From Candidatus Poseidoniia archaeon (GTDB lineage Archaea > Thermoplasmatota > Poseidoniia > MGIII > CG-Epi1), in NCBI GenBank assembly GCA_030748895.1, contig JASMLC010000003.1, positions 78,594-142,593 of the forward strand: a stretch of 64,000 nucleotides of DNA. The letters run 5' to 3'. This document shows, piece by piece, positions 11,867 to 47,608 of the stretch; the first letter of the stretch is position 1; every line of letters begins with the position of its first letter. The position numbers and the translations under genes are program-made. Under the pieces are notes generated by a model. The model was not told the origin of the DNA, did no database searches, and saw only the letters and a list, made by a program, of their open reading frames with translations.

Positions 11867-11947
11867 ATTTACACCTTTTTTGCGTGAGACGGAAGTCCTC
11901 CGTAATGGGCGGACTGACCTCTCTCGTAGCGCCTTCATACCCAAGGA

Positions 11948-26510: not shown

Positions 26511-27872
26511 TAGCGCGCCCAGCAACGCCGCCGCGGCCGCGACCAGCGCCAGCCGGTCCAGTCCTGGTGAGGGCGAGATGGCCCAGAGCGCGAGGCTGAA
26601 GCCGGCGAAGAGCAGCGCGCTCTGCTGCACCACGGCGCGGCGCGACTGTCCCACCTGCAGCATCAGCACCAGCACCAGCGTGAAAGTGAGCGACGCGAGG
26701 CGGAACGGCGCCGCGTAGCCGAGCAGCGTCCAGAGGCTGGTGCCGAGCAGCGGCCCGATGGCACGCGACAGTGCGCCCAGCGACTGGCTCAGTCCCAGCA
26801 CTGTCCCCTGCTCCTGCGGCCCCACCGCGCGCGAAATCAGCGCGTTGAGCGTCGGCTGGATGAAGCCACTGCCGAGCGAGAAAATCGTCGTTGCCAGCGC
26901 AACGCCTTCGAGCGTCGTCGTGTAGGGAATATAGCCCATACCGAGCAGCATCAACAACGCCCCCGCGCGCGAGGTCCATGCTTCGCCGCAGCGGCGCACC
27001 GCGGGGCCGACGAGGCCGCCCTGCGTCACGATGCTGACGCCGCCCATGTAGGCGAACAATACCCCGGATAGCCGCACCGGCAGCCCGATGCGCTCCTTCG
27101 AGAACTCGACGAAGGTGCCGAAGATGATTGAGAACGCCAGCAGGTAGAGCGTGAAGATAACCAGCAGCAGTCCCAGCCGCGGCTGGCGCAGGTAGGCGAG
27201 CGTCTCGCGCAGCGCTTCCCCCGGCGAGACGCGCGGCCGCACCATGTGGTCTGACGGGAGCGACTCGGGCAGCCAGCGCCAGGCGCAGAAGAGGTTCAGC
27301 AGCGCCAGCCCCGACCCGAAAAACGCCGGCAGCCAGAAGCCCCACTGCCCCAGCAGCCCGCCCAGCGCCGGCCCGCAGACAAAACCCAGCCCGAAGGCGA
27401 CGCCGAGCATCCCCATCCCCTGCGCGCGCTCCTCGGGCGGCGTCACGTCCGCCACGTAGGCGTACGCGGCGGCGTAGTTGGCGCTCATCACCCCCAGCAT
27501 GATGCGCGACAGGAACAGCACCCCCAGCAGGAGGCGGTTGTCGTCGCTCAATCCCAGCGCCGGGTCGGCCAGCCCGAACACCGCGTAGGCGACCGCCGCA
27601 CCACCGAGGCCGAGCATGATGACCGGCCGGCGGCCGATACGGTCGCTCAGCCGCCCCCACGCCGGAAGGCAGACGAACTGCGCCAGCGAGAAGGCGGTAA
27701 TCAGCAGGCCGACGGTGAGGATTGTACCGCCCAGTTCGGCCACGATGTAATTCAGCAACGGGATGAACATCGCGAACCCCGCAAGGTCGATGAACATCGT
27801 CAGCATCAGGATGTGGAGCGGCTTCACCGGCCCCGCAGGCGAGGGGGTGATATCAGGATGCTGCGCCGGCAA
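26493..27872 (-). CDS. MFS transporter
   Basis: 12-TM topology with MFS signature regions (GRLSDRIGRRPVI, tandem 6+6 helices). Confidence 0.85.
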   Translation of the reverse strand: MPAQHPDITPSPAGPVKPLHILMLTMFIDLAGFAMFIPLLNYIVAELGGTILTVGLLITAFSLAQFVCLPAWGRLSDRIGRRPVIMLGLGGAAVAYAVFGLADPALGLSDDNRLLLGVLFLSRIMLGVMSANYAAAYAYVADVTPPEERAQGMGMLGVAFGLGFVCGPALGGLLGQWGFWLPAFFGSGLALLNLFCAWRWLPESLPSDHMVRPRVSPGEALRETLAYLRQPRLGLLLVIFTLYLLAFSIIFGTFVEFSKERIGLPVRLSGVLFAYMGGVSIVTQGGLVGPAVRRCGEAWTSRAGALLMLLGMGYIPYTTTLEGVALATTIFSLGSGFIQPTLNALISRAVGPQEQGTVLGLSQSLGALSRAIGPLLGTSLWTLLGYAAPFRLASLTFTLVLVLMLQVGQSRRAVVQQSALLFAGFSLALWAISPSPGLDRLALVAAAAALLGALLTRKQ

Positions 27873-27939
27873 AACCGGCGGGATAGAACTTGCTTATATC
27901 CCCATGCGCCCTACCGCGCTCCCCGGGAAGAGGATTATC

Positions 27940-30900
27940 ATGCGCCAACATCTCAGAAATGCACTCGCCGTACTTGCGTCTGTAATCCTGTTTTCACTGG
28001 CGGCCACGACCGTAACGGGCGAGGGGGTGGACCTGACAATTACTTCCCTGGACTACACGAACGACTTTGAGACGGGAGATCCCGTTACCATCGTCCAGAG
28101 CGGGCGGGATGCTGGCACTGTATACAAATACAATTTTTACGACGATGATGATGATAACTGTGGTGAGCAGCGGTGTATCCCCGAGAACTGGTATGCGAAG
28201 AATTTTGACGACGCAATCTGGGATTCAGGAGCCGCACCATTCGGCAATAATGATCAGGCCGGCGCCAGTCCGGGCACGATGTGGCAAACAGAGGATGATC
28301 TGAATGACCACGTCATAATTCGCCATCACTTTACTTACAATGATGAGTATGATGCAATCAGTGCAACCCTGAACCTGGCCTACAATAACTACTATGTCGC
28401 CTACCTGAACGGGAACCTTATTCGAGACTGCTATTCTTACCAAAACAACAACAATTGTTATCAAGGCGACGCTGCATACTGGAACAATGAACTGACCTAT
28501 GACGGAGGCTCCCAGTCAGGGCCTAATCAAGATTGGCTAGTCGAAGGTGACAACGTACTTGCCATACTAGGGAGAGATAGTACTTGGGGTGGGGACCCTG
28601 ATCAGTGGCTTGATGTCGAACTCGTGGTCAACGTCCAGTCCTGGAGGGAAAAACCGATTATCCTCGGTGATGACCTGTGGCTGAGGGTGATTACTTCCAA
28701 CGTGGGAAACGAAACCGCTGAGAACTTCAGTGTCACGCTGGAAATCGAGGGTGAGGAGCTGGGGAATACTACCATAACTGAACTGGCACCTAATGCTACG
28801 GCTGAAAGTGTGTTCTACTGGACTCCGGAGGCGCTCGGAGACTTTAATCTCATGGCTTTTGCTGATGCTGGGCAAGATGTTGGGGAAAGCGATGAGAACA
28901 ACAATACCCTGAATCGCACAATACATATTGGGTTCTATGCGTACAATCTTACTGTGGAATCAAACCATGTTGTAGGAAATGTTACAGAGATTTTCAGGTA
29001 CAATCTAACTGTCACTAACGAAGGCGACGTGGAAGACAATTTCACCCTCTCAGCCTCAGGTATTTTCTACAATTGGGATTGGACCCTTACGCCCAGCGTA
29101 CTTCACCTGCAACCCGGAGAGGGCGGGAATGCGACTCTTGAAATAGTTCCGGACAGAGAGACGTTGGCTGGGAATTACTCCGTGTTCATGAGTGCCAGGT
29201 CTCAGTACTATAGTGAATTCAGGGAGAGCGTAGTCCTGAGTGGCCGGGATAACGAGACAGAATGGTGGTGGGCCCATTCCAATAGCAGTAACACGCGACT
29301 CTACTATTGCACGGACAATGATGAACCCGACGACCCAGATTATGAATGCGATATCAGCTGGACCGAACTGGACTTCGACTATGATGACAACTGGACCCTT
29401 GACCCGGCACCCTTCGGAGATACCGACATAGGCAATGTAGACAACAACACGGTCTGGCAAGGCAACAGTTACGCCTACTTCCGCCATATATTCACTATCG
29501 ATAATATCTCGGCTTACGAAGGGGGCAGCCTGAGCCTGAATACTGCGGCAAACAACTACGGGACCTACTACCTGAACAGCCAGATAGTGTTCAATGACAT
29601 GCGGCAGGGTCAGGGACACACCGCGAATTACTGGAACGATGAAACCCTGTTTGGACCCGAACTCCTGCAGGAGGGCGAAAATATCCTGGCGTCAGTAGTC
29701 CGGGAAACTGGAAACACCCAGTGGTTTGATGAGGAAGTGGTGGCTGTTTTCTCCCAATCCGCAGCCTGGGATTTCGTTCCGCTACCACTGGAACTGGAAA
29801 TGGAGGTACTGCCGACCTATAATTTCTCGCTCTCGGCTCCCATTAGCAACAAGCAGATTCCGGACGACACTAACTACACCTTTCAAGTCTGGATTACCAA
29901 TCTGGGAAACATCGGAGATACCTATGAGATGGTAGTCACACTAAACGACACCTACAACTTCACAATTCTTAACTACACCACCACTGAAATGCACAGCGTT
30001 GTTGGAGAGGGGGCAATAGGTTACATTAATGTCACCATGCGCGACCTTATCGAGGAAGACGCGCGTGGCGGTTTCAATGTTACTGTAATTTCGCGCAACT
30101 CGACCGAACAACTCACTAAATGGATTGAGCTGACTGCAAGGCTCTATATCGTGCCTGACACACTGCGTCCTGTTACGGAGGCTATAACAGATCCACTCGT
30201 CAACTCGACCTCGTTCCAGGTAGGGTGGGAAGTAGCCGAATGGTATCGCCTCGATGAGGTGCTCGGCAACGACACCTTGGTGGTAACCGTCGAATACCGG
30301 CGCGACAACGGCAGCGGCGGCTGGGAGGAGTGGCAGGTGTGGCAGGTCTTCACGGCCGAGGACGAGGACAATCCGCTCGGCAGCGGGAGCGGAACCTTCT
30401 CGCTGGGTGAGGACGGCCGCAGCTTCCAGTTCCGGGCAACCGGCCTCGACGACGACGGGCTGCTGGAGGACAAGACGGGACGCAATGACACCGAGACGCT
30501 GGTCGACACGACCCCGCCGACGGTCGCCGTTTCTAGCGACCCGGCCGGCGCGCTGCTCAGCACCGACTATCTCGAGCTGAGCTGGGAGAGCAGCACCAGC
30601 GACCTTGCTGGCTACGACCTGCAACATTCGTTTGACGGCGGCGCGTGGGAAACGCTGCTGGCCGACTCGCTCGCGACGCGCTACGACTACTACGTCACGG
30701 CCGACGGTAGCCACGCCTTCCGCGTCATCGCGAGCGATGACGCGGGCAACCGCGACGTGCCCGACACGCCCCAAATCAGCATGGTCATCGACACCGCAGC
30801 CCCGACGGGGAGGCTCGCGTCGCTGGAGCCGCTGACCGGCGCGCTGGCGGTGACGTTGCTGCCATCGCAGGACAACGCCAGCAGCTACAACCTGAGCTAC

Positions 30901-31917
30901 GCGCGGATTGCCGAGGAACAGCTGCTGACCGCCATCTGGGCGTGGCAGGAGCTCGGCAGCTGGAACGCAACGCAGTCGCACGACTTCGACGTCGTCGACG
31001 GCTACGCCTACTACTTCCGCTACACGCCGGTCGACGCGGCGGGCAACGTCGCCGACCGCGACTCCCTCAGCGCAACTTACAGCGGCGACGGAAACCCGGG
31101 CCAGTCGTTCCCACTGCTGCTCCCCGCTATCATCCAGCAGGGCGACCTGCAACTCACCGTGCACGCTGGCCTGACGGAACTGGCGCGCAGCAACGCGCCG
31201 GGGATGGTTCTCAGCAACCAATTCTACTACGACACGGCGACCGCCACCATCCAATTCGGGAACGGCGCGAGCGGCTACCTGCCGACCGAGGGGGAGTCTA
31301 TTACCATCGCCTGGAGCGGCTACGACGCCGCGACGCTGGTTGACCGCACCCCGCCCTCCGCCCCGCGCAGCTTCGAGCTGACGCTGGCGGTCGGGGGGAC
31401 GACGGCGCAGCTGCGGTTCCTCTATTCAGCCTCGGACGACGTGGTCGAGTATCGCATCATCCGCAAGGATTCGCCCAACGCTACCGGCGACCTGCTCACG
31501 ACACTCGCCCACAGCGAGGGGTACCTGACGTACGTCGACCAGCCGCCGGGCGAACAGCTCTGGATTTACCGTGTCATAGCGGTCGACCGCAGGGGGCAGC
31601 TCTCGCCAGCGGTCGAGGCGACGGTCGATCTGACACCAGCGGTGCAGCCACTGACGGACGGCGACGATGAAGCGGGGCTGCCGCTGATGACGCTGCTGGC
31701 GGGCGCGGCGCTGGTGCTGGGCGGTGGAGCGGCGGCCTGGTGGTTCACCCGGCCGCCGCCCGTGGCCATCGCGCCGGTGCTGACGAGTGTCGCGTCGCCT
31801 TTCACCGCCGCCGGGGCAGAACTGGCGTGCGACGGATGCGGAACCGTCTTCGCCCCCGACGAGGGGGAGACGCTACACTGCCCCGGCTGCGGGCAGGTCG
31901 GGCCACCCCCTTCCTGA
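27940..31917 (+). CDS. Giant exported adhesin-like protein: signal peptide, two galactose-binding-like jellyroll domains, CARDB-like and NPCBM/DUF11-like repeats, two FN3-like domains, a TM helix and a C-terminal cytoplasmic CxxC...CxxC zinc ribbon
   Basis: ATG at 27940 with GAGGA 8 nt upstream. Signal MRQHLRNALAVLASVILFSLAATTVTG. Jellyroll signatures ATLNLAYNNYYVAYLNGNLI...GDNVLAILGRDSTWGG and SLSLNTAANNYGTYYLNSQIVF...GENILASVVRETGN. CARDB-like ...ENFSVTLEIEGEELGNTTITELAPNATAESVFYWTP...DENNNTL. FN3-like TTPPTVAVSS... and DRTPPSAPRSF.... TM LPLMTLLAGAALVLGGGAAAWWF. Zinc ribbon CDGCGTVFAPDEGETLHCPGCG. Dozens of N-x-S/T sequons. Confidence 0.85.
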   Translation: MRQHLRNALAVLASVILFSLAATTVTGEGVDLTITSLDYTNDFETGDPVTIVQSGRDAGTVYKYNFYDDDDDNCGEQRCIPENWYAKNFDDAIWDSGAAPFGNNDQAGASPGTMWQTEDDLNDHVIIRHHFTYNDEYDAISATLNLAYNNYYVAYLNGNLIRDCYSYQNNNNCYQGDAAYWNNELTYDGGSQSGPNQDWLVEGDNVLAILGRDSTWGGDPDQWLDVELVVNVQSWREKPIILGDDLWLRVITSNVGNETAENFSVTLEIEGEELGNTTITELAPNATAESVFYWTPEALGDFNLMAFADAGQDVGESDENNNTLNRTIHIGFYAYNLTVESNHVVGNVTEIFRYNLTVTNEGDVEDNFTLSASGIFYNWDWTLTPSVLHLQPGEGGNATLEIVPDRETLAGNYSVFMSARSQYYSEFRESVVLSGRDNETEWWWAHSNSSNTRLYYCTDNDEPDDPDYECDISWTELDFDYDDNWTLDPAPFGDTDIGNVDNNTVWQGNSYAYFRHIFTIDNISAYEGGSLSLNTAANNYGTYYLNSQIVFNDMRQGQGHTANYWNDETLFGPELLQEGENILASVVRETGNTQWFDEEVVAVFSQSAAWDFVPLPLELEMEVLPTYNFSLSAPISNKQIPDDTNYTFQVWITNLGNIGDTYEMVVTLNDTYNFTILNYTTTEMHSVVGEGAIGYINVTMRDLIEEDARGGFNVTVISRNSTEQLTKWIELTARLYIVPDTLRPVTEAITDPLVNSTSFQVGWEVAEWYRLDEVLGNDTLVVTVEYRRDNGSGGWEEWQVWQVFTAEDEDNPLGSGSGTFSLGEDGRSFQFRATGLDDDGLLEDKTGRNDTETLVDTTPPTVAVSSDPAGALLSTDYLELSWESSTSDLAGYDLQHSFDGGAWETLLADSLATRYDYYVTADGSHAFRVIASDDAGNRDVPDTPQISMVIDTAAPTGRLASLEPLTGALAVTLLPSQDNASSYNLSYARIAEEQLLTAIWAWQELGSWNATQSHDFDVVDGYAYYFRYTPVDAAGNVADRDSLSATYSGDGNPGQSFPLLLPAIIQQGDLQLTVHAGLTELARSNAPGMVLSNQFYYDTATATIQFGNGASGYLPTEGESITIAWSGYDAATLVDRTPPSAPRSFELTLAVGGTTAQLRFLYSASDDVVEYRIIRKDSPNATGDLLTTLAHSEGYLTYVDQPPGEQLWIYRVIAVDRRGQLSPAVEATVDLTPAVQPLTDGDDEAGLPLMTLLAGAALVLGGGAAAWWFTRPPPVAIAPVLTSVASPFTAAGAELACDGCGTVFAPDEGETLHCPGCGQVGPPPS

Positions 31918-31976
31918 AGCGCTGACGCAATCTTATAAAGCGCATTACAACATACGGTAGACAACCGGAGGTTGAT

Positions 31977-32636
31977 ATGTCGCTGGAAGAAATCGATGAC
32001 CTGTTCTACCTACTCGAAAACCCGACGCGGCGGCGCATCCTGAAGCTGCTCTCCCGCGAGCGGCTCTACCCGCTGCAGCTGTCGCGCGAAATTGACGTCA
32101 GCCAGCAGGCGGTGGTCAAGCACCTGCGCATCCTCGAGGAGCACGGCATGGTCGCTTCGCGCGACGAACCGAGCGACAGGGGGCCCAACCGGCGCGTCTA
32201 CCGCGCTTCGCGCTCGGTCTCGCTGCATATCGACGTTGGGCCGACGACTTTCCGTGAGCAGGCGGCACCGATGGCCGAGGATGCCAAACTGAGCGCCGAG
32301 CAGCTGCGCATCCGCAGCGCTATCTCCGAGGCGCGCAATATGGAGCCGAGCGCCCGCATGGACCTGCTGGCGCGCGTCGGCGAGGATTTGCGCCACTCGC
32401 TGCATGCCCACGAGCAGGAGCGGCAGCAGCTGCTGGCGCTAATCAGCGAGTTGAACCGCGAAGTGGGGCGCTGCAGCCGCAAGGCGGACTGCAGCTACGA
32501 CGAGCGGCGGATGCTGCACCACATGCTCCAGAACCCGAGCTACACCATCGAGGGCGCTGCCGCCGCGCTGGGGCTGCGCGAAGCCGAGGTACGGCTGCTG
32601 CTGACGGGGCTAGAGCAGCGCGGGCTCGCCCGCTGA
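31977..32636 (+). CDS. ArsR-family winged-helix transcriptional regulator with a C-terminal coiled-coil/helical extension
   Basis: LENPTRRRILKLLSRERLYPLQLSREIDVSQQAVVKHLRILEEHGMV is a canonical ArsR/SmtB HTH. GGAGGT RBS 6 nt upstream. Confidence 0.7.
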   Translation: MSLEEIDDLFYLLENPTRRRILKLLSRERLYPLQLSREIDVSQQAVVKHLRILEEHGMVASRDEPSDRGPNRRVYRASRSVSLHIDVGPTTFREQAAPMAEDAKLSAEQLRIRSAISEARNMEPSARMDLLARVGEDLRHSLHAHEQERQQLLALISELNREVGRCSRKADCSYDERRMLHHMLQNPSYTIEGAAAALGLREAEVRLLLTGLEQRGLAR

Positions 32637-32664
32637 ACATTAAATAGGGGAACTAAATCGACGG

Positions 32665-33165
32665 ATGATGCGAATTCTCTACGGCACGCTGGTGCTGTTA
32701 CTCGTCGCCACGGCGGCCCACGGCGAGGCAACCTACCGCGTCGACGGACTGCCGCTCGACTACGCCCTCGGCGCGACCTACGAGGTCACGCTGACGGTGA
32801 GCGACCCCGACGCGGTGACGGGGGTCACAATCACGACCACTAACGGCTCGCTCTCCGCCGCGGATGAGTTCGGCGAAGGCGAGGCACACGACCTGCAATT
32901 CGGCGCGGACGACGGCTGGAGCTTCTTCTGGCAGGCGCCCGCCGACGTACACGAACTGGGCAAGGGCGAGGCGGAATTCAGCGTCACTTTCGCCGGCGAG
33001 GATGACTCGACCTGGGCCAGCTACGAAACGGTCGTGCGGCCGCCGCCAATCCACGCCGAGGATGAGGAAGCGACGCCCGTTTGGGCGCTGCAACTGGCAT
33101 GGGGCGGCGTCGCGCTGACTGGGATCCTGGCACTGGCTGCGGCATTCGTGCTGCGGCGCGGCTGA
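32665..33165 (+). CDS. Small exported protein with a C-terminal TM anchor
   Basis: Signal peptide MMRILYGTLVLLLVATAAHGEA. Acidic beta-rich body. C-terminal TM WGGVALTGILALAAAFVLRRG. Confidence 0.5.
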   Translation: MMRILYGTLVLLLVATAAHGEATYRVDGLPLDYALGATYEVTLTVSDPDAVTGVTITTTNGSLSAADEFGEGEAHDLQFGADDGWSFFWQAPADVHELGKGEAEFSVTFAGEDDSTWASYETVVRPPPIHAEDEEATPVWALQLAWGGVALTGILALAAAFVLRRG

Positions 33166-33251
33166 AGCGGCTATCGTCGGAGACGCGGGCGCAACGTATA
33201 TATCGGGCGACAAACGTCCCTGATACCTGCCTACGGGCAGAGGACATAACC

Positions 33252-33752
33252 ATGAAACGCAGAATTGTGAACGATGAGCAGGCGGTTTCACCTGTGATTG
33301 CGGTCATCCTGATGGTCGCAATTACGGTCGTGCTAGCCGCTGTGCTGTATGTGTGGGCCTCCAGCTTCCTGGGTGGCACCACTAAGAACGCGCCGACCGG
33401 CAGCACCATGGCAACCAAGACCTCAGGGAACGTCTGGATCGTAGAAATGATCAAGCTGAACCCGCAAGTCTCGGTGAACTCGGTCCACTGGTACCTGCTG
33501 GACATCCAGGGCAACACTGTCAGTGATGGCCTGGTATCGGCAGTCTACGGCTATTATGCCGGTGAGGGCAAGGGCGTCATCTTCGTCGACAACGACTTCG
33601 ATGGTAAGCTGAGCCCGGGCGACAAGTTCGAGGTCCACCCCGGTGAATCCGGCTCAGACCTCGAGAACACGAACTCGGTAGACGACTACAAGTTCCGTCT
33701 CAAGTTCGAGCCCACCGGCGACACCATCGGCTACGACACCCCGCTGTCATAG
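33252..33752 (+). CDS. Archaeal type IV pilin (class III signal peptide, DUF1628-type N-terminus)
   Basis: MKRRIVNDEQA|VSPVIAVILMVAITVVLAAVLYVW matches the prepilin-peptidase (PibD/FlaK) processing consensus K/R...G/A|VSPVI plus a hydrophobic helix. Confidence 0.8.
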   Translation: MKRRIVNDEQAVSPVIAVILMVAITVVLAAVLYVWASSFLGGTTKNAPTGSTMATKTSGNVWIVEMIKLNPQVSVNSVHWYLLDIQGNTVSDGLVSAVYGYYAGEGKGVIFVDNDFDGKLSPGDKFEVHPGESGSDLENTNSVDDYKFRLKFEPTGDTIGYDTPLS

Positions 33753-37560: not shown

Positions 37561-37854
37561 ATGTCCGAAGAGGATAGAGAATACCCTGAATTTACCGCCC
37601 CGGCGCCTACGGCTGAGAGCGACGGGCCTAATGTAGGCGTTATCCTTGCCGCTGTTTCTGGCTTGCTGGTAGTGGTTGGCTTCTATTTCGGATTCACCAG
37701 CCTGCAGGCGATGGGCGAAGGACTGGTAGCTGCCGACATGGATGCACAGCAGGGGCAACTCATGCTGGGCTACCTGCTGATTACGGGTGGCATATTCCTA
37801 GCGGCGCTGCTCTCGCTGGGCGGCGTTATCCGCGGCTTTTTCTCCAGCGACTAG
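37561..37854 (+). CDS. Small two-TM membrane protein
   Basis: Acidic N-terminus followed by two hydrophobic helices (VILAAVSGLLVVVGFYFGF, LGYLLITGGIFLAALLSLGGV). Confidence 0.4.
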   Translation: MSEEDREYPEFTAPAPTAESDGPNVGVILAAVSGLLVVVGFYFGFTSLQAMGEGLVAADMDAQQGQLMLGYLLITGGIFLAALLSLGGVIRGFFSSD

Positions 37855-38231
37855 ACCGTTACTGTCCGGGTCAGTTTGAGGTCCAGCAGGCCATCGCTTA
37901 GCAGGACTGTGTAGCTGAAGGTGGTCGAGCTACCGTCGGTGCTGCTTGAATCCAGCTTCAGCACCAGCGCATAGCCGTGTGCCGCAAAACTGTTCTCGAA
38001 CTCCCCTGATGCTGTAGCGAATGCCGCCTCGGCAGTCGCGCCGCCATCCAGCTCGGCGTCCAGCGCCGGCGGCAGGTGTGCGTCGAGCATTGTCAGTAGC
38101 GGTGCCGGGTCGTGCCGCTCGCCCTGGTACCGGCCCAGATTGGCCGAGTGGGAAACCGAAATCGAGATAGTGAGCAACGTCAGCGTCATCAGCAGGCCAG
38201 CTATCATCAGCATCTGGCCGCGGTTGTTCAT
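37851..38231 (-). CDS. Pilin-like protein with a class III signal peptide (minor pilin)
   Basis: MNNRGQ|MLMIAGLLMTLTLLTISISV is a class-III-like processing site. Last gene of the pilus operon. Confidence 0.5.
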   Translation of the reverse strand: MNNRGQMLMIAGLLMTLTLLTISISVSHSANLGRYQGERHDPAPLLTMLDAHLPPALDAELDGGATAEAAFATASGEFENSFAAHGYALVLKLDSSSTDGSSTTFSYTVLLSDGLLDLKLTRTVTV

Positions 38232-38668
38232 GCTGTCCCCCGCGGGCCATACCAGAGGCTCAGTTCAAGCTCCCACAGTTCGGAACCGGCCCAGACCAGC
38301 CGGAAGGCGATGCTCACTGTCCCTTCTGGCGTGCCGCGCTCGACCAGCGCCTCACTGCTCCCACCATGCGTCCCCGTCAGGCGATAGCTCGCCGCCGCCG
38401 GCAGCCCACCGTCCAGGTACAACTGCAACGCGCTGCTGTTATCCTCGCTGAGCCAGGTCGCGAGCGTCGATTCGCCTGCGCCAGTCTGCCACTCATCAAG
38501 CACCTGCAACAGCTGCATCCCCTGATGGTGCAAGTTGTCGTCGCCAACCCGGGTCGCATCGCTGGCTGGCAAGCTGATAACCGCGACGTTGACCGCCGAG
38601 GTGAAGAGCGTCGCGACCAGCAGGACCTCCAGCACGTGCATCTGCGCCGCGCGGCCGGGCAACTTCAT
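38228..38668 (-). CDS. Pilin-like protein (minor pilin)
   Basis: N-terminal MKLPGRAAQMHVLEVLLVATLFTSAVNVAV is a hydrophobic helix after a basic segment. Operon context. Confidence 0.45.
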   Translation of the reverse strand: MKLPGRAAQMHVLEVLLVATLFTSAVNVAVISLPASDATRVGDDNLHHQGMQLLQVLDEWQTGAGESTLATWLSEDNSSALQLYLDGGLPAAASYRLTGTHGGSSEALVERGTPEGTVSIAFRLVWAGSELWELELSLWYGPRGTA

Positions 38669-38669
38669 T

Positions 38670-39857
38670 TCAGGCGACAGTACCTGGACTGATGACCGAA
38701 GTAGCGATTCCCATCATTTCGAAGATCAGCCAGCCGATGAAGAGCAACATCGAGGAACGGTTGAACGCCGAGTAGAGCCTGCCAGTGGACATGAAACCGG
38801 CCGCCATGCCGTTGCCAATGCTCTGGACAATTATGCTGTAGAGGAAGATTGTCGAAATCCAGACTTCGTTCAGGTTGCGCACCTGTAGGTTACCGATAGA
38901 CATCGAACCTTCTGCGCCGGTGGCAGAGGCGGAATCGGCAATCGCCGGGACGAAAGTGTTGGCCAGGACAAGGATAATAATCAGGTAGACCAGAAACGAA
39001 GTGTAAACCACCATGATATAGCTGGTAACTTCCTGCGCTCGCTCAGTCTCGAGCGCCTTGATTTCCTTGGCATCATACGAGGCGGCGAGCAGGATGTCCG
39101 AAATGCGGCCTCCCGCACGGTTGGCCTCATCAACCATGCGGACCGCCCGAGTCACGATTGGTGATCGGACTCGCTCGGTGAACATCCCCAGCACCTCACC
39201 GAAAGAAATTCCCCATGAAATCTGAGTCGACATCTTGTGCACTTCGTCGTTGAGGTTTCCATACTCTCCCCGCGCCAGCGTCTGGATAGCAACGGTCATG
39301 CTGAGACCACCCTTCCAGTACTCAGCCAGATCGCGCAGGAAGTCGGGGAATTTCTCCTCGACCCGCGCCCGAAGCTTGTCTTCACGCCAGCCCCATATGC
39401 CATAAGGCAGCATTAGCGCAATCAGTGCGAAAACGTAGTAGTCAAGGGTCGAAATTTCAGGATAGTGTCGATACCAGGTTATGGCTTCTACATCCTCATC
39501 GATACCGCTAATCAGAGGGTCAGCGTCACGGCTCTCGTTCTTGGCAATCGAAGGGAGGCCATACATATTGGGCGTAATCGTGAAGGGGCCATCGTTCATG
39601 GCCTCCGGATTGTCGAACTGCGAGTCACCGTCGAAATCGGTGACGTGCGTTGTCAGGTCGGCCTGGTGGTTCAACTGCCCCAGCGCGATGAGCGCGCCAC
39701 CCATCATCAGCGAGAGGAAGACAACGACATAGGCCGTAATGTCAGTCTTGCCCCCCTTCACCTCGAGCCACTTTTGCGCCAGGCGGTAGGTCATCCAGCG
39801 CCGCTTCTTGCCGGTCCGCTCATCGCGGTAGACCCGTTTCTCGAGATTACCAGCCAT
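38670..39857 (-). CDS. Type IV pilus assembly membrane protein, TadC/FlaJ-like (single T2SF domain)
   Basis: T2SSF-like region DFLRDLAEYWKGGLSMTVAIQTLARG...RAVRMVDEANRAGGRISDILLAAS flanked by TM helices. Confidence 0.75.
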   Translation of the reverse strand: MAGNLEKRVYRDERTGKKRRWMTYRLAQKWLEVKGGKTDITAYVVVFLSLMMGGALIALGQLNHQADLTTHVTDFDGDSQFDNPEAMNDGPFTITPNMYGLPSIAKNESRDADPLISGIDEDVEAITWYRHYPEISTLDYYVFALIALMLPYGIWGWREDKLRARVEEKFPDFLRDLAEYWKGGLSMTVAIQTLARGEYGNLNDEVHKMSTQISWGISFGEVLGMFTERVRSPIVTRAVRMVDEANRAGGRISDILLAASYDAKEIKALETERAQEVTSYIMVVYTSFLVYLIIILVLANTFVPAIADSASATGAEGSMSIGNLQVRNLNEVWISTIFLYSIIVQSIGNGMAAGFMSTGRLYSAFNRSSMLLFIGWLIFEMMGIATSVISPGTVA

Positions 39858-40798
39858 TAATCGATTGCGACCTCATTGCTCAGTGAGAGGAAAATATAGG
39901 CGAAGAAAATCTGGATTATCGGGAACATCAGGAAGACCATTATGTAGAGGTGCTCTTCCTCCAGTTTCATCCCGGACCCGGAAACCCAGAAAGTAATCAC
40001 GGCCATAATCATCGCGAAAATTGGCAGTGCCACCGCCATCACCACATACGCTTCCGCAAAGAGTGCCATCTGCTGGATGACGCTCTTCACATGCACCCGG
40101 TTGGCCTGAGCGTAGTATTCTGCCCGGTTCAGGAAGTAGAGCTTCAGGTTACCGCCCGAGGTAAGCGTGCCAACAATTCCCTGCAGGAACTCGGCAAACC
40201 GTTCCGAGGGCGACCGTTCGACGCCCTCCTTGAGTGTCGTCACCAGGTCACGGCCCATGAATTCGATGGAGTGGTAAATCCAGGCGGCGTCGCGCGAAAT
40301 CTCGCCATAGATATCCTCGTTACGGGCGAGCGACTTGAAAATCATCGCCGGCGTTGCGTTAGCCGCCGCCATCGCTGCCGTGTAGCTGGCGGCGAAGGGC
40401 AGCTTGCGGTCCATATCCGTAGCGCGCGAGCCGACTCTCAGCCCGGGCTCGAGCCAGTTCACCATCGCTATCAGCAGCGGCAGCACGATAACCAGCACCA
40501 GCGCCAGAACGGCCTGTATAAATTCCGAGACGATAATCGGCTCACCGTTCGGGCCGGTCATCTGCGCCAGGAATGGCACGCCGACGGCAATGAACGCAAA
40601 CACCAGTACCAGTCCGGCGATAAATGTAACTAGAACCTGCATCGCGGCGTGGGCAACATAGCCTTCGGGCAGCAGCGGAATGCGTGCCTTCACGAGCTGT
40701 TGCTTGAGCTTGTAGGAATCCTTGGTCAGCAAGCGACCCAGCCAGCCGAAAAGGAGCAGGCTGAGCGACTGCAGACCGCTTAGAACCACCGGTGCCAC
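39857..40798 (-). CDS. Type IV pilus assembly membrane protein, TadB/FlaJ-like (single T2SF domain)
   Basis: T2SSF-like region FAEFLQGIVGTLTSGGNLKLYFLNRAEYYAQANR plus TM helices. Stop/start overlap with the next gene. Confidence 0.75.
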   Translation of the reverse strand: MAPVVLSGLQSLSLLLFGWLGRLLTKDSYKLKQQLVKARIPLLPEGYVAHAAMQVLVTFIAGLVLVFAFIAVGVPFLAQMTGPNGEPIIVSEFIQAVLALVLVIVLPLLIAMVNWLEPGLRVGSRATDMDRKLPFAASYTAAMAAANATPAMIFKSLARNEDIYGEISRDAAWIYHSIEFMGRDLVTTLKEGVERSPSERFAEFLQGIVGTLTSGGNLKLYFLNRAEYYAQANRVHVKSVIQQMALFAEAYVVMAVALPIFAMIMAVITFWVSGSGMKLEEEHLYIMVFLMFPIIQIFFAYIFLSLSNEVAID

Positions 40799-43056
40799 CA
40801 GCGCGGATTGGCCGAGCGCTCAACACGCTTCGCCAGTTCAGCCTGCAGCTTGGTCGTAGCCTTGGCCTGCCGGGCCTCTTCCTTGGCTGCTGCGCTCGCC
40901 TGCTTGTCCGGGCTGGAGGCGAGCTTGACCTGCCGCGCCTCGGCCCCGACACGGGCAGATAGCTCACGGTTACACGACTTCAGTAGCCGGCCCGCTTCGC
41001 GCACGGACAGGCTGGAAACATCTCCAAGCCCGAGCTGCGCCGCGGCAGGCGTCAGCTGTCGCAGCGGGGCGTAGCGGGCCTGTGCCTTCAGCATATCACG
41101 CTCGAGATAGGCGTCCGACTTGGCGCGTCGGGTCGCCTCCTTTGCCTCAAGCTTGGCGCGCTTGCCTTCATCGTCAGTTGCGGCCGCCCGGGCATCGGCC
41201 TTCGCACGAGCCGCTTCTTCCTTGGCTAATCGCTTCTGGAACTTCTGCTGCACCTTGGCCGGGAACTCGGTGATATCGACACCCTCCTCGGCCGCGCCAG
41301 CACCACTCAAGTCAAGGTCACGGTCCTTCATCTTGCGGCGACGTTTGCGGCCGCCCACCTGCAGGTCAGCGTAAACCTGGCGCATCACGTCCTCGGGGTG
41401 TACGTAATACTCGGCCACTACACGGGCAAAGTCGCGATAGTCCCGGATACTCTTCTTGAGGCACCACTCAATGACCAGCTGCCGCCGCTTGATTTCATCC
41501 ATGATTTCAACGCGGTTCAGGTTAGCTTTCATCATGATTTTCTCAAGCACGTAGGACTTGCCGGTGAAGACGAACTCGTCGGTGGCGTTGTCCCAGCGGA
41601 AAGCCTCGTTGGTCAGCAACTCGTGCGAATGGGGATCAATACCGATAATCTCGACGATGTTCTTGTTGCGCCGCACGCGCTTCCCACCAACGCGGGTCTG
41701 AATCTGGATTGAAATCGCGTCAAGCGATGGAATCAGCACGCGCGGAATCTCAATCGGCTTGTTCTCAAGCCGGTGCACCAGACTCTGGATTGAATCGGCG
41801 TGGAAGGTGGAATAGGTAGTGTGCCCCGTCGCCATGGCCTGGAACAGCACATAAGCCTCTGCGCCACGAATTTCTCCCACAATGATGTATTCCGGCCGCT
41901 CACGCAGCGCTGCTCGCAGCAGGTCGTACATGTCGACCACTCCCGCCGCCTTGACGCCCGCCATGGCGGATTCACCACCGAAACCCTCGCGGGTACAGCC
42001 GGGAATCCAGTTGGGATGCGGCAGGTTCAGCTCACGCGTTTCCTCAATACTCACAATCTTGTGCTGCCACGGCAGGAAGAGCGAGCATGCGTTGAGCGAA
42101 GTGGTCTTGCCGGAAGCAGTACCACCGACAAACAGCATCGACATGCCGTATTGCATCGCGAGCCAGAAGAAGGCAATCTGCATCGAGGAGAAGGTCTTGA
42201 ACTCTAGCAGGTCCACCGGCGTGAACGGTTCGTCACGGAAACGCCGGATGGTAAAGGTCGAACCTTTCGTGGAGACCTCACGGCCCAGCGTCATGACGAT
42301 ACGCGAGCCGTCCATCAACGTTGCGTCGAGCAGCGGTTCAGCAATCGAGATGTGCTTACCGCAGCGTTGTGCCATGCGGATGATGTATCGCTCCAGCTCG
42401 AATTCGTCAGACCAGAGGACATTGGTCCGCAGCGACTCGAAGCGCCGGTGGTAGACGAACACCTCGACGCCGGGGCCGTCGCAGGAAACATCCTCGATGT
42501 TCGGGTCGTGCATCATGGTATCAATCATGCCGTAGCCCACCAGGTCACGCTCGATGTAGTAGTGGATTTTCTCGCGGTTGCTCTTGCGGCTCGGAAGCCG
42601 GTACGCGTCGAGGATGTCGTCAACCGCCTGATGCAGGAACTCGTCCTGCCCCTCCTCGAGGGTCTCGCGGCTGATGTTGAGCGCTCGCTGGAGCACTGAC
42701 TGGATAGTGTCCAGATCCTGCTTCTCCTGCTCGCTCGCCTTGGGTTCGACAACGTAGTAGAATCGTGAATAGTCACGCTTGTCGAACAGGATTCTGACAT
42801 AGGAGAAGGGTGGCCTTACGGGGTAGGTGTCGAGTTCCTCGAAATCCTCGCCCAGCTCGATGTCGTCCATGACGAGGTCGTGGATGACGCCTGCCTTCTC
42901 GGCCGCCTTGCGGGCCTGCTCCTGCTGCTTGCGTTCCTTGCGCAAGCGCCGTTTTTCACGCCATGAAAGCTGGCTCTCGTCGACCGTTTCCTCGGACGGC
43001 GATAGCATACCAAGAGGGTCTGATTCCGTGTCAATCGAGTCGCCGGCAGCTCCCAT
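40780..43056 (-). CDS. FlaI/ArlI/TadA-family secretion ATPase with an acidic N-terminal extension and a charged coiled-coil C-terminal extension of about 200 aa
   Basis: Walker A GGTASGKTT, Asp box, Walker B and His box (EIRGAEAYVLFQAMATGHTTYSTFHA). The core is about 520 aa and the protein 758 aa. The K/R/E/A-rich tail ends NPRWWHRWF. Confidence 0.85.
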   Translation of the reverse strand: MGAAGDSIDTESDPLGMLSPSEETVDESQLSWREKRRLRKERKQQEQARKAAEKAGVIHDLVMDDIELGEDFEELDTYPVRPPFSYVRILFDKRDYSRFYYVVEPKASEQEKQDLDTIQSVLQRALNISRETLEEGQDEFLHQAVDDILDAYRLPSRKSNREKIHYYIERDLVGYGMIDTMMHDPNIEDVSCDGPGVEVFVYHRRFESLRTNVLWSDEFELERYIIRMAQRCGKHISIAEPLLDATLMDGSRIVMTLGREVSTKGSTFTIRRFRDEPFTPVDLLEFKTFSSMQIAFFWLAMQYGMSMLFVGGTASGKTTSLNACSLFLPWQHKIVSIEETRELNLPHPNWIPGCTREGFGGESAMAGVKAAGVVDMYDLLRAALRERPEYIIVGEIRGAEAYVLFQAMATGHTTYSTFHADSIQSLVHRLENKPIEIPRVLIPSLDAISIQIQTRVGGKRVRRNKNIVEIIGIDPHSHELLTNEAFRWDNATDEFVFTGKSYVLEKIMMKANLNRVEIMDEIKRRQLVIEWCLKKSIRDYRDFARVVAEYYVHPEDVMRQVYADLQVGGRKRRRKMKDRDLDLSGAGAAEEGVDITEFPAKVQQKFQKRLAKEEAARAKADARAAATDDEGKRAKLEAKEATRRAKSDAYLERDMLKAQARYAPLRQLTPAAAQLGLGDVSSLSVREAGRLLKSCNRELSARVGAEARQVKLASSPDKQASAAAKEEARQAKATTKLQAELAKRVERSANPRWWHRWF

Positions 43057-43066
43057 TCTTACTCGT

Positions 43067-43522
43067 CTATCCTGCGGTCAGGGTGACCACTTGAGATGTT
43101 GCGTCATACTGCACGACTATATAAGAAGTGCTAGAGTACACTTTCCCATCTATAGCCGTGGCGGGCGCAAGCGGAAAATCCGCTGTGTATCGACCCCCCA
43201 CAGGAGCCTTGCTGACCACTTTCAGGCCGGTCTCGGTACCGATTATCGTGTAGAGCACGCCGTGCTCCTCGGTGGCGGCGGGAATACTCAGAGTGGCGTC
43301 AATTCCGGGATAGGCACGGACCATCGCGAGCAGCTCCTCAACCAGTTGCTGCAGTCGCACGCCCACCTGTTCCACCTCTTCCTGTGCCGTGAAGGTATGG
43401 TTGCCCTTCAGTACGTCGGCGACCGCCACGGTCACCGACGACAGCAGCAGTACTGCCAGCAACGAGGTGTAGATGAACCCTATTTCCTGCGCGCCTGACT
43501 CAGCGCAATCCAAACGATACAT
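43067..43522 (-). CDS. Pilin-like protein (minor pilin)
   Basis: N-terminal ...SGAQEIGFIYTSLLAVLLLSSVTVAV is a class-III-like hydrophobic helix. 151 aa. Operon context. Confidence 0.45.
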   Translation of the reverse strand: MYRLDCAESGAQEIGFIYTSLLAVLLLSSVTVAVADVLKGNHTFTAQEEVEQVGVRLQQLVEELLAMVRAYPGIDATLSIPAATEEHGVLYTIIGTETGLKVVSKAPVGGRYTADFPLAPATAIDGKVYSSTSYIVVQYDATSQVVTLTAG

Positions 43523-44492
43523 GCACCGTCCTCTCCATCAGGCGTAGGTCCAGCGAGGTCACCTGCGTCAGGTATACCTCGTCATGCTGTAGGTCACGGC
43601 TGAATCCCCACAGGGACTGGAAGAAGCCGTAGGTTGCATACTGCGCGTCGCCTTTCACGACGATTCGCAAGCTGTAAGCCGCAATGCTCCCGGAATCGCT
43701 GCCGCCCTGGTTGCGCAGCGAGAAGTCAAAGTTGGAGGGGCCAGTCATACTGCGCATCTGCGAGCCACTGTTGTTGTAGGTAACGAGGTAAAGTGACAGC
43801 GCATCCACGTTTCCGCTGCCGCGCACCAGCGGGCGGTCCTCGAAGTAGTATCCGCCACCCGGCTCATGCGACAGTACCCCGCCGTTGAACAATCGCATCT
43901 GGAACTGCCCTGCCGTCGAGCGGTACTTGTAGGAGAGGACATCCTGCATGTAGTAGCGGAACTCGCCGATGGCGGTACCGTTGGCGGCAGCAGCGGTACC
44001 GGTCACGCCCGCCACGATGGGGGGCAGCGGTCCCAGCCGGTTGCCGTCGGTGTCACCGCTCCAGACAGTCCCGTTGGGGTAGGTGATGGTGACCGTCAGC
44101 GTCGCCACGGTTTCGGTCAGGTCCTCGACGCGCAGGATTGTGGCGCCCGCTTCCACGTTGCGCGCCGAAAGCTGCGCCCAGGAGACGGTGCTCCAGCAGA
44201 GCAGCAGGTCTTCCTGCGCCTTCTTCAGCGTGAAACTGCCCGAGCCGAGCGAGACGGTCGAGGTGCGCGAGGCGCCCTCACCCTGTAGCAGCACCTGGTC
44301 CATGTCAGCGTCCAGATTGAGCAGGTTGGAGCGCGTCGTCGCATACTGCGCCCACGCCTCATTGTTCTGGATTTGCGGGATGCCCCACGCCAGCATGGTA
44401 CCTACGATGGTGACCATCATTACCATAATCAGGATGGTGCCGATAATCTGGCTTACACCATCCTCGTCGCGAGGCAGGAGCTGGCGCTTCAC
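43500..44492 (-). CDS. Archaeal type IV pilin (major pilin/adhesin candidate, 330 aa)
   Basis: MKRQLLPRDEDG|VSQIIGTILIMVMMVTIVGTMLAW is a class III signal peptide. First gene of the locus. A TATA (ttttatag) lies about 50 nt upstream on the minus strand. Confidence 0.7.
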   Translation of the reverse strand: MKRQLLPRDEDGVSQIIGTILIMVMMVTIVGTMLAWGIPQIQNNEAWAQYATTRSNLLNLDADMDQVLLQGEGASRTSTVSLGSGSFTLKKAQEDLLLCWSTVSWAQLSARNVEAGATILRVEDLTETVATLTVTITYPNGTVWSGDTDGNRLGPLPPIVAGVTGTAAAANGTAIGEFRYYMQDVLSYKYRSTAGQFQMRLFNGGVLSHEPGGGYYFEDRPLVRGSGNVDALSLYLVTYNNSGSQMRSMTGPSNFDFSLRNQGGSDSGSIAAYSLRIVVKGDAQYATYGFFQSLWGFSRDLQHDEVYLTQVTSLDLRLMERTVHVSFGLR

Positions 44493-44552
44493 GCCTTCGC
44501 CACGCGGTGGGGGACTAAAAAGCGTGCGTGCCGAACAGCGCTATAAAAGTCG

Positions 44553-46264: not shown

Positions 46265-47608
46265 TTAGAGCCCTAGCTGCACGGCGACCTGCTCGTCGGC
46301 CGCAGCAAGGAATTGCTCTTCCGCGTCGAGGGAGACTGTCGCGCCCGCCGCGATGGCGTGGCCGCCGCCGATGCCGCCGCACTTGCCGGCGGACTGCGAC
46401 ATTACCTCGGCCAGATTGAGCCCGCGCTCAATGAGCTCCGGCGTCGCGCGCGAGGAGATTATCAGCTCGCCGTCGCGCGGCGAAAGGCCGATGGCGGGCA
46501 GCGAGCGGTCGAGGAAGTAGCCCAGCGCCAGCCCGCAAATCGTGCCCTTCAGCGCCGGCTCGCTGGTGCTGAAGTGCTGGATGGCGTTGCGCCGCTCGAA
46601 CTTCGCCGTACCGAGCAGCGCGAGCAACTGCTCGCGCTGCTCCAGCTCATGCGCCCCCGCACGGCCACGCGCCGCCGCCGAGCCGAGCAGCAGCGCAATC
46701 CCGGTCGAGGTGTCATCCTGCCGGCCGCTGGCATCGACCAGCGACGCCAGTTCAGAGACGGTACAGCCCCACCCCGGCAACTGATAGCTGGGCGCGAAAA
46801 GCTGCTCGCACTGCTCGCTCCCGGCGCCCTGCTCGAGCAGCTTCAGCGTCAGCCAGTCCGCCAGCCGCGCCGCCTTCTCGCCCGCGAGGCTATCGGGCGC
46901 CGCGGCAGGGTCGAGGCCGATTTCGCGCAGCGCCTCTTCGGCCGCAGTGGGCTGCCCGGAGACGCCGACGAGGTACGGCTCGAGCGACCCCTCCAGCGCC
47001 TCGGCCAGGCTCGCACCGTGGAGCGGAAGTTGCTGCTTTTCTTTTAAATAATTATCTTCAGTAGCCATATTAGCGATTTCGAGGTTCCAACCCTTCCATC
47101 CACCAATCATCTGGCGGTCGCCGCAGGCTCCCGCCAGCGCGATGGGGGCGAGGTCACGGTTCGCCTCGTCCAGCGTTAGCGCCAGCGCGAAGGCGACACT
47201 CGCGGCGGACGCCTCGCGGTTGCCGTCAACCCCTGCCTTGTGGGCATTCAGCTCGAGGACGTTGCCAGGGACCTCGCCCTGCGGCAGGTGGTGGTCAACC
47301 ACCAAAGCGGGCGCCTCAAGCTGCGCCAGCAGGTCCATGTAGCCCGATCCGAGGTCGGTGAAGAGCACTAGCGCGGGCGCCTCGCGGTTCAGCCGCTCGA
47401 TGACGTCGGGCGCCAGCGAGAGGACATTGCTGAGGTGGAACCGCTTCCCGAGCCGCAGTAGCGCCTGCACCAGGATGGCTGACGAGGTGAGGCCGTCGCA
47501 GTCGTAATGGCCGATGATACGCACCGGCTGTCCGGTTTCCCGCAAGCGGTCGGCGAGTGGATGTGCCGCTTCCATCAACGGCTGCGGCATCGCCGCGGCG
47601 GGATTCAC
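46265..47608 (-). CDS. RecJ-like DHH/DHHA1 phosphoesterase (archaeal RecJ/GAN-type)
   Basis: DHH motifs IIGHYDCDGLTSSAIL and LVVDHH. DHHA1 motif GGGHAIAAGA. 447 aa. Confidence 0.75.
   Translation of the reverse strand: MNPAAAMPQPLMEAAHPLADRLRETGQPVRIIGHYDCDGLTSSAILVQALLRLGKRFHLSNVLSLAPDVIERLNREAPALVLFTDLGSGYMDLLAQLEAPALVVDHHLPQGEVPGNVLELNAHKAGVDGNREASAASVAFALALTLDEANRDLAPIALAGACGDRQMIGGWKGWNLEIANMATEDNYLKEKQQLPLHGASLAEALEGSLEPYLVGVSGQPTAAEEALREIGLDPAAAPDSLAGEKAARLADWLTLKLLEQGAGSEQCEQLFAPSYQLPGWGCTVSELASLVDASGRQDDTSTGIALLLGSAAARGRAGAHELEQREQLLALLGTAKFERRNAIQHFSTSEPALKGTICGLALGYFLDRSLPAIGLSPRDGELIISSRATPELIERGLNLAEVMSQSAGKCGGIGGGHAIAAGATVSLDAEEQFLAAADEQVAVQLGL

Follow-up and report, generated by a model that had tools for sequence, protein, structure and literature searches.

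The stretch of DNA analysed here, 64,000 nucleotides of contig JASMLC010000003.1 from a Candidatus Poseidoniia archaeon (hereafter, the window), carries at positions 37851-44492 of its minus strand a real operon of seven genes for the assembly of a type IV pilus, and the archaeon is an uncultured member of Marine Group III (MGIII). The locus brings together a FlaI/PilB/VirB11 ATPase, an adjacent T2SSF platform and substrates with class III signals, three of the components expected of an archaeal type IV filament (TFF) assembly system. Judging from sequence relationships, it probably encodes a euryarchaeal non-motility pilus of the 'clade 2/system 2' type, vertically inherited and akin to Archaeoglobus GspE and Haloferax PilB3/PilB4. 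It adds an ordinary member to an archaeal pilus family that is already known, and split platforms have been documented in archaea before; the residual novelty lies in an MGIII-specific tail of the ATPase and in a well-sampled platform fission accompanying a PilB3-type ATPase. A literature search found no specific description of an MGIII pilus.

All seven open reading frames (ORFs) that a preliminary description of this DNA had reported as co-directional and overlapping were recovered (7/7) at their exact coordinates and with the same sizes. Two genes for pilin-like proteins come first, followed by the ATPase gene, the genes for the N- and the C-terminal half of the platform, and two further pilin-like genes. 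Along the operon there are overlaps of 23, 19, 1 and 4 nucleotides, and gaps of 10 and 1 nucleotides.

The third gene (40780..43056, minus strand) encodes a 758-residue secretion/assembly ATPase of the PilB3/afGspE type, composed of an N-terminal extension (residues 1-60, 42877-43056), a core (residues ~61-565) and a C-terminal tail (residues 566-758, 40780-41361 including the stop codon). The full length of the protein (~750 residues) is kept across more than 100 protein clusters. In Pfam, it matches T2SSE with 100 bits and PilB3_C with 43.5 bits, above the cut-off, together with a weak match to PilB3_N, a family also recorded for homologues of the window ATPase. Among the proteins of the PDB, the highest score was obtained with 2OAP (424 bits over query residues 63-560), which we take to be the Archaeoglobus fulgidus GspE (afGspE), followed by the Sulfolobus FlaI (4IHQ, 277 bits) and by the Caulobacter CpaF (131 bits). 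The NCBIfam models for FlaI (NF058587) and TadA (TIGR03819) scored 412 and 144.7 bits, respectively, below their cut-offs of 550 and 373, and the model of the bindosome ATPase BasE scored 209 bits, with weak BasF matches for the platform halves. Haloarchaeal plasmid-borne ATPases share 44-52% identity with the MGIII ATPase core. In public annotations, the homologues of both the ATPase and the platform are labelled 'flagellar protein FlaI/FlaJ'.

Directly behind the ATPase gene, the platform is encoded by two genes, one for a 313-residue protein that represents the N-terminal half of PilC/FlaJ (39857..40798, minus strand) and one for a 395-residue protein that represents the C-terminal half (38670..39857, minus strand). 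Specifically, the N-half contains one T2SSF domain (43.8 bits) and about five hydrophobic segments, and covers positions 42-242 of the 555 positions of the FlaJ profile; the C-half, again with one T2SSF domain (49.5 bits), covers positions 312-543 of the same profile. The ArlJ models gave 46-67 bits with the two halves, below cut-offs of 400-570. In the window, the junction between the two genes reads GAT TAA TG GCT, that is, a TAATG stop/start overlap. A species-level scan yielded 39 related loci, all of MGIII type and with 61-98% ATPase identity (these and the other loci compared are referred to below by L numbers where needed). Both halves could be scored in a set of 36 loci, which takes in two metagenome contigs and spans a genomic guanine-plus-cytosine (GC) content of 35-62%. 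The platform is made of two ORFs in all the scored loci (36/36). The junctions are mostly TAATG or TGATG, with TAATATG in L035 and TAACATG in L036, where the frame relation is different. Since both the junction sequences and the frame relations differ across conserved splits, a sequencing frameshift at position 39857 is ruled out, and the two genes are truly separate, as the preliminary description had it.

The origin of the split is indicated by a comparison with the fused 679-residue platform of Halobaculum: residues 22-299 of the N-half align to its residues 27-315, and residues 150-383 of the C-half to its residues 444-679. The two halves show no significant similarity to each other (E 0.19). 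A recent duplication of a T2SSF gene was therefore rejected, as the halves map to different parts of the fused platform and are mutually dissimilar, and the same observations point to the fission of one PilC/FlaJ gene. By these alignments the split is a collinear fission, with the native order kept directly behind the ATPase, so that the MGIII order of ATPase, N-half and C-half is that of a pilB-pilC operon in which the fused platform gene has been divided. Nor is the split, which is an old one, confined to MGIII. Among the nearest representatives of the N-half at 50% identity, 108 of 150 are 250-400 residues long and 19 of 150 reach at least 500 residues, and in the distant loci L046-L048, whose N-halves are ~40-46% identical, the ATPase gene is again followed by two T2SSF genes. 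When the halves were compared with the Vibrio TadB and TadC by hhalign, no discriminating one-to-one mapping emerged; the profile of the C-half favours TadB over TadC (37.7 versus 24.5), and that of the N-half does not discriminate between them. We also observed that residues 1-135 of the C-half, which precede the T2SSF domain and are the counterpart of the linker between the two domains in fused platforms, are conserved and include one transmembrane segment and an acidic, Asp-rich loop (…DFDGDSQFDNP…NESRDADP…), with no Pfam match.

The remaining four genes of the operon encode prepilin-like proteins (in the sequences below, a slash marks the prepilin site). The first gene (43500..44492, minus strand) encodes a 330-residue protein of the DUF7289 family (37.6 bits, cut-off 27), with a weak Pilin_N match and the N-terminus …RDEDG/VSQIIGTILIM…; it is probably a large minor pilin or a pilus-associated subunit, and the DUF7289 family is also present in the Halobaculum pil locus. 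The second (43067..43522, minus strand) encodes a 151-residue DUF7266-like protein with the N-terminus …SGA/QEIGFIYT…, and for the protein at the corresponding position in L047 a DUF7266 match is on record. Downstream of the platform genes, a 146-residue DUF7288-like protein (38228..38668, minus strand; …AAQ MHVLEVLLVATLF…) has no Pfam match of its own in the window, and its orthologues match DUF7288 in 10 of 15 cases, with a best E value of 4e-5, below the Pfam cut-off. The last gene (37851..38231, minus strand) encodes a 126-residue protein (p126, MNNRG/QMLMIAGLLM…), in which the class III-type N-terminus and a HQGERHD motif are kept in 11 orthologues. A homology of p126 to DUF7287 or DUF7261 was considered and rejected: the alignment is confined to the signal-peptide region and lacks significance. 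Class III-type N-termini are kept in all the orthologues of these four small operon proteins (…EEA/VSPIIGT…, …SGA/QEIGFIYT…, …KG/QMHVLEV… and …KG/QLLLVSGLLM…), according to the conserved pattern [KRDE][GA]/hydrophobic.

A separate, canonical archaeal type IV pilin of 166 residues is encoded on the plus strand at 33252..33752. The perfect prepilin site noticed there earlier is real (MKRRIVNDEQA/VSPVIAV…; DEQA/VSPVIAVILMVAIT…), and the protein matches Pilin_N with 40.6 bits and TIGR02537 with 47.5 bits, along with a weak UpsA match. In the closest relatives this pilin is found at the matching position, and the L046 cluster has a homologue with 37% identity beside it. It is a candidate major pilin that may be supplied in trans to the operon.

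The placement of the locus among type IV pili rather than archaella, already proposed in the preliminary description, agrees with the T2SSE ATPase, the T2SSF pair and the class III N-termini, and no archaellum accessory gene was found. Specifically, the proteins of the window were scanned, a few short ORFs excepted, and neither ArlH/KaiC, ArlF, ArlG, ArlCDE/X nor archaellin was detected among them or within ±10 kb of the operon in relatives, in line with the lack of FlaH, FlaG/F and FlaCDE on which that proposal drew. Likewise, TadZ/ParA, the RcpA secretin, the Flp pilin and TadV were found neither in the locus nor among the scanned window proteins, and the ±10 kb around the operon in relatives contained no secretin or TadZ either.

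The two extensions of the ATPase were unusual enough to have been singled out in the preliminary description, and the tail proved to be conserved across MGIII and to have no detectable homologue. The N-terminal extension, described earlier as acidic and of about 70 residues, exists; however, relative to afGspE it measures ~45-60 residues and is acidic only in residues 1-30 (net charge -8), residues 31-60 forming a predicted basic helix (net charge +6). The tail is 193 residues long (residues 566-758), carries a net charge of +17 and is rich in A (20%), R (12%), K (10%) and E (8%), in agreement with the K/R/E/A-rich composition and the length of about 200 residues first proposed, and it terminates in the window with NPRWWHRWF. 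Across MGIII its end is near-invariant (RSANPRWWHxWL), and the motifs GGKKRRRK, DLDLS and LGDVSSL are fixed; the tails are 50-56% identical among genomes whose ATPase cores are ~90% identical. In the AlphaFold prediction, a low-confidence linker (residues 567-599) is followed by five long helices, with a predicted local distance difference test score (pLDDT) of 67-90; a model of the tail alone likewise consists mainly of long helices (mean pLDDT 72.7, predicted template modelling score 0.45). The earlier term 'coiled coil' is unsupported, because the hydrophobic fraction at the heptad a/d positions is just 0.12-0.5, and the modelled tail looks like charged single helices and not like a canonical coiled coil.

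Used alone as a query, the tail gave no Pfam match, no match to PDB sequences and no Foldseek match at E <1. The tails of two haloarchaeal relatives (200-270 residues) are acidic, of low complexity and not homologous to the MGIII tail, and the ATPases of more distant relatives with a split platform are 590-662 residues long and have no such tail. In the lineage with 61% identity (L039/L048), a tail of similar length is present without the PRWWH end. On these comparisons, the tail is a conserved, MGIII-specific feature. Its role would most plausibly be that of a tether or regulatory arm touching the membrane or a partner protein. That the whole arrangement, with a KRRRK linker, ~150 residues of charged Ala-rich helices and the RSANPRWWHxWL end, should be a new built-in tether or regulator of a type IV filament motor is an idea we regard as tentative and rather unlikely to prove right; if true, the arm could position or gate the hexamer on its two-piece platform, replacing the separate MinD/FlaH-type proteins found elsewhere in archaea.

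The genomic setting of the operon speaks for vertical inheritance. In ~30 species-level MGIII genomes, whose GC content ranges from 35 to 68%, the operon lies between S15/GCD14/TrxB on one side and CTP synthase on the other, and the remainder of the window consists of core housekeeping genes, among them those for the proteasome α subunit, SBDS, exosome subunits, the CCA-adding enzyme and TiaS. The preliminary description had reported a GC content of 55-58% at the locus against ~68% in the flanks and had taken it as a sign of lateral origin. A dip is indeed present, but the corrected figures are 59.4% for the locus and 66.1% for the remaining window, and the left neighbour, the CTP synthase gene, is already at 61.2%. 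In the low-GC MGIII relatives, the GC content of the locus equals that of the flanks (for example, 0.358 versus 0.360), and in a lineage with 85% identity GC at third codon positions (GC3) is higher in the operon than in its flanks. Within the ATPase gene, the conserved core has a GC content of 57.3% and the fast-evolving tail one of 66.1%, and the core of the window ATPase is ~90% identical in amino acid sequence to proteins from genomes with 36% GC. As GC content follows conservation within the ATPase gene, the dip is therefore best read as the result of amino acid constraint, the lineage itself having drifted to high GC. Judged by composition, the dip does not indicate foreign DNA, and judged by gene order the operon appears to be chromosomal and vertically inherited. 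A horizontal-transfer island was rejected on account of the housekeeping synteny in ~30 genomes and of the equal GC content in the low-GC relatives, and the proposed lateral origin does not stand.

In addition, we note from a comparison of the loci L001-L045 with the window that the MGIII genomes maintain near-perfect synteny in this neighbourhood while the GC content of these genes varies between ~35 and 68% and their GC3 between ~0.2 and 0.83; for a single lineage of order rank, this is a large change in composition. In L039, L045 and L048 (61-65% ATPase identity, GC ~0.6), the operon is more divergent, with different flanks, a 780-residue ATPase and a tail without the PRWWH end. In L039 and L048, a gene for a protein of 453-467 residues replaces the last, 126-residue gene. 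Either these three loci belong to a sister lineage, or the locus is a paralogue.

Set against described systems, the MGIII operon most resembles clade 2. According to Makarova et al. 2016 (PMC4858521), this clade comprises loci of the PilB3 type, whose pilins are supplied in trans, and loci of the PilB4 type, which have a pilin set of their own; its signature is a pilin of 250-550 residues (arCOG02911), its ATPases have extra N- and C-terminal domains, and two tadC-like genes occur in 'many' of its euryarchaeal loci. A 2026 preprint likewise gives the system 2 ATPases extended N-terminal and sometimes C-terminal regions. The MGIII operon appears to share with the clade 2 systems (Haloferax volcanii PilB3-PilC3, the PilB4 type and afGspE) the PilB3_N/C regions around T2SSE, the best solved relative being afGspE itself, the lineage-specific ATPase extensions typical of the group, and the large pilin-like gene in the size range given by Makarova et al.; the Pilin_N pilins can also come in trans in this clade. 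In the Halobaculum locus, a Pilin_N pilin, a 989-residue PilB3_N/C ATPase and the fused 679-residue platform are followed downstream by a set composed of DUF7287, DUF7288, DUF7261 (weak), DUF7266 and DUF7289. Pilin-like genes of the DUF7289, DUF7266 and DUF7288 families in cis appear to be common to the haloarchaeal loci and to MGIII, although the DUF7266 and DUF7288 matches are weak in the latter. Differences are also evident: the haloarchaeal loci L004 and L005 have one platform of ~680-700 residues instead of the 313- and 395-residue proteins of MGIII; their pilin-like genes trail the core, whereas in MGIII they flank the ATPase-platform genes on both sides; and their ATPase tails are acidic and of low complexity, unlike the basic, Ala-rich helical MGIII tail with its PRWWHxW end.

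The Epd pilus of Methanococcus maripaludis (clade 1/system 1) is also an archaeal non-archaellum adhesion pilus, with two single-T2SSF genes for the platform and several minor pilins encoded in one operon. It differs in its order of platform genes, ATPase and FlaH-like ATPase, in a major pilin devoid of a globular domain, compared with 126-151 residues for the smallest pilin-like proteins of the MGIII operon, and in a dedicated peptidase (EppA in Denise et al. 2019, EpdA in the 2026 preprint), none of which was found at the MGIII locus. The bacterial Tad (Flp) system, in turn, resembles MGIII in two half-size T2SSF proteins adjoining a FlaI-superfamily ATPase. However, its ATPase CpaF is distant (131 bits, ~30% identity) and ranks third among the structural relatives; TadZ, RcpA, RcpC, TadD, Flp, TadV and TadE/F/G are absent from the locus (compare the Vibrio Tad locus); and TadB (C-half-like) precedes TadC (N-half-like) according to Denise et al. 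2019, whereas in MGIII the N-half comes first. With the archaellum proteins ArlI/ArlJ, the operon has in common the ATPase and platform superfamilies and the class III signal-peptide logic; it departs from them in scores below the equivalog cut-offs, in the absence of ArlH/F/G/CDE/X, in the split platform and in the long extensions of its ATPase, the archaellum ATPase being described as a minimal form.

These comparisons bear directly on the other explanations of the locus. The preliminary description had seen in it a Tad/Epd-like system, acquired laterally as marked by the split platform and the low GC content, and had regarded a split platform as a bacterial arrangement. That last premise fails, since the fissioned platform is common to the archaeal Epd-like systems (clade 1) and the bacterial Tad system, which itself derived from an archaeal Epd-like system (Denise et al. 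2019, PMC6668835), and is found in many clade 2 loci (PMC4858521). Two single-T2SSF genes do stand beside the ATPase, the GC content is 59.4% against 66.1%, and the preference of the C-half for TadB fits the assignment of TadB as C-half by Denise et al.; yet the N-half does not discriminate between TadB and TadC, and the order is that of N- and then C-half behind the ATPase rather than that of Epd with its platform genes, ATPase and FlaH. The term 'Tad-like' is not sustained by an ATPase that scores 424 bits with afGspE against 131 with CpaF and 145 bits with a TadA model whose cut-off is 373, in a locus that contains no TadZ/ParA, secretin, Flp-size pilin or TadV. As the synteny with housekeeping genes in ~30 genomes, the lack of a GC dip in low-GC relatives and the dependence of GC on conservation within the ATPase gene also oppose acquisition, we consider a laterally acquired Tad/Epd-like system very improbable. 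An even smaller chance attaches to a reduced archaellum operon for motility, as often annotated in Poseidoniia: the annotations that call the homologues FlaI/FlaJ, the NCBIfam models, of which FlaI and ArlJ are the best, and the Marine Group II literature, which files flaI, flaJ and tadC under 'flagella', all lean that way, but the FlaI (412 < 550) and ArlJ (46-67 < 400-570) scores are insufficient, afGspE outscores FlaI, the PilB3_N/C regions and the DUF7289/7266/7288 set are of pilus type, and no ArlH, ArlF, ArlG, ArlCDE/X or archaellin was found among the window proteins scanned or within ±10 kb in relatives.

Somewhat less remote, but still unlikely, is a short pseudopilus, that is, a bindosome- or secretion-type machine displaying or exporting surface proteins such as the giant CARDB/PKD proteins encoded nearby. 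The BasE match of 209 bits (BasF being weak) falls, together with that of BasF, far below the cut-offs of 1000 and 1300, and neither the operon nor the genes next to it encode a substrate-binding protein that bears a class III signal. Giant adhesin-like genes do occur directly downstream in related loci (L047), and the window encodes surface proteins of 1384 and 1524 residues; these are, however, neither adjacent to the MGIII operon nor syntenic with it. In favour of such a machine, the operon encodes four different prepilin-like proteins and no obvious abundant major pilin, and the 2026 preprint proposes functionalised TFF machines, but a canonical Pilin_N pilin is present nearby in the lineage.

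Several observations weigh against the clade 2 pilus that we favour. Neither an A24 prepilin peptidase nor MinD was found among the window proteins scanned or within ±10 kb of the operon in relatives, and a motif scan of the window for the former was negative too, in agreement with the preliminary description, which had stated the absence of the peptidase. The gene for such a peptidase commonly lies in another part of the genome. The 151-residue protein matches DUF7266 with 21.3 bits, below the cut-off, and p126 has no Pfam match. The full-length ATPase model is poor in the core (mean pLDDT 47.7); it was built from a shallow alignment, with all sequences sharing 77% identity or more, and nothing but the predicted secondary structure of the tail was taken from it. 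The role proposed for that tail is speculation. The placement in clade 2 is drawn from bit scores, Pfam PilB3_N/C and pilin-family matches. Finally, the 2026 preprint gives system 2 a single platform gene, from which the MGIII locus departs. On this point Makarova et al. 2016 and the preprint conflict, so a single platform gene is not agreed upon as defining system 2.

If the clade 2 assignment is right, a hexameric PilB-type ATPase would dock on the membrane platform and drive the assembly of a non-rotating surface filament. The N- and C-halves, translationally coupled through the TAATG overlap, would presumably rebuild the usual pseudo-dimeric platform. The prepilins, that is, the four from the operon and the Pilin_N major pilin, would be processed by a peptidase of the PibD/EppA type whose gene lies outside the locus; the four co-transcribed proteins with class III signals could form a priming or minor-pilin complex or be part of the fibre, and a Pilin_N pilin such as that at 33252 would be the likely major subunit, provided in trans. 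By analogy with the haloarchaeal PilB3 and Epd pili, the filament would most likely serve attachment to particles or cells.

MGIII archaea are uncultured and their cell biology is little known. Since the operon is present at a fixed position in every MGIII locus recovered, a surface filament, probably for attachment, would be a core trait of MGIII. The operon also offers a clean marker to tell pilus genes from the annotated 'flagella' genes in Poseidoniia. A well-sampled fission with a PilB3-type ATPase bears on whether the platform split once or repeatedly, and the locus is relevant to the point on which the 2026 preprint and Makarova et al. 2016 disagree about system 2. The conserved ATPase tail is a testable feature for the type IV filament field. 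These findings do not overturn current understanding.

Upstream of the operon, a candidate archaeal TATA-like box, TTTTATAG, was read from the sequence at 44541..44548 (minus strand), ~50 nucleotides ahead of the GTG with which the first gene begins and within the 60-nucleotide spacer behind trxB, where it may act as the promoter. A scan for sigma-70 promoters and intrinsic terminators gave counts near the shuffled expectation and is not meaningful for archaea. At the other end, a gene on the plus strand (37561-37854) is convergent with the last pilin-like gene, which it overlaps by 4 nucleotides, and encodes a 97-residue protein with two predicted transmembrane segments, no family match and no known link to pili; it is kept at the same position in many relatives (29-96% identity).

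On the side of the flanking housekeeping genes, GCD14 and S15 are separated in the high-GC lineage by a DHH/DHHA1-family phosphoesterase gene (46265-47608, minus strand). It is present in the window and in L008-L011, L036, L040 and L041; the low-GC relatives are without it and have GCD14 and S15 adjacent.

The block at 27763-33752 contains the gene for the 1384-residue CARDB-domain surface protein (GC 0.49-0.50 at 28-30 kb), an ArsR/MarR-type regulator (31977-32636) and the Pilin_N pilin described above (33252-33752). Between these last two, at 32665-33165, a protein resembling the choice-of-anchor V domain is encoded (30.8 bits, below the cut-off of 42). The pilin and the anchor-V-like gene recur here in the closest relatives L008, L041 and L033, whose retrieved flanks extend no further, and in the low-GC MGIII relatives the riboflavin genes directly follow the Ofd1-like gene. 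Its make-up suggests a variable island of cell-surface genes, for which recent exchange is more plausible than for the pilus operon. The window encodes a second giant protein, of 1524 residues, at 7370-11944 (minus strand, 60% GC); with its PKD, Ig-like and Big_9 domains and hydrophobic segments at the termini, it is a putative adhesin or surface protein.

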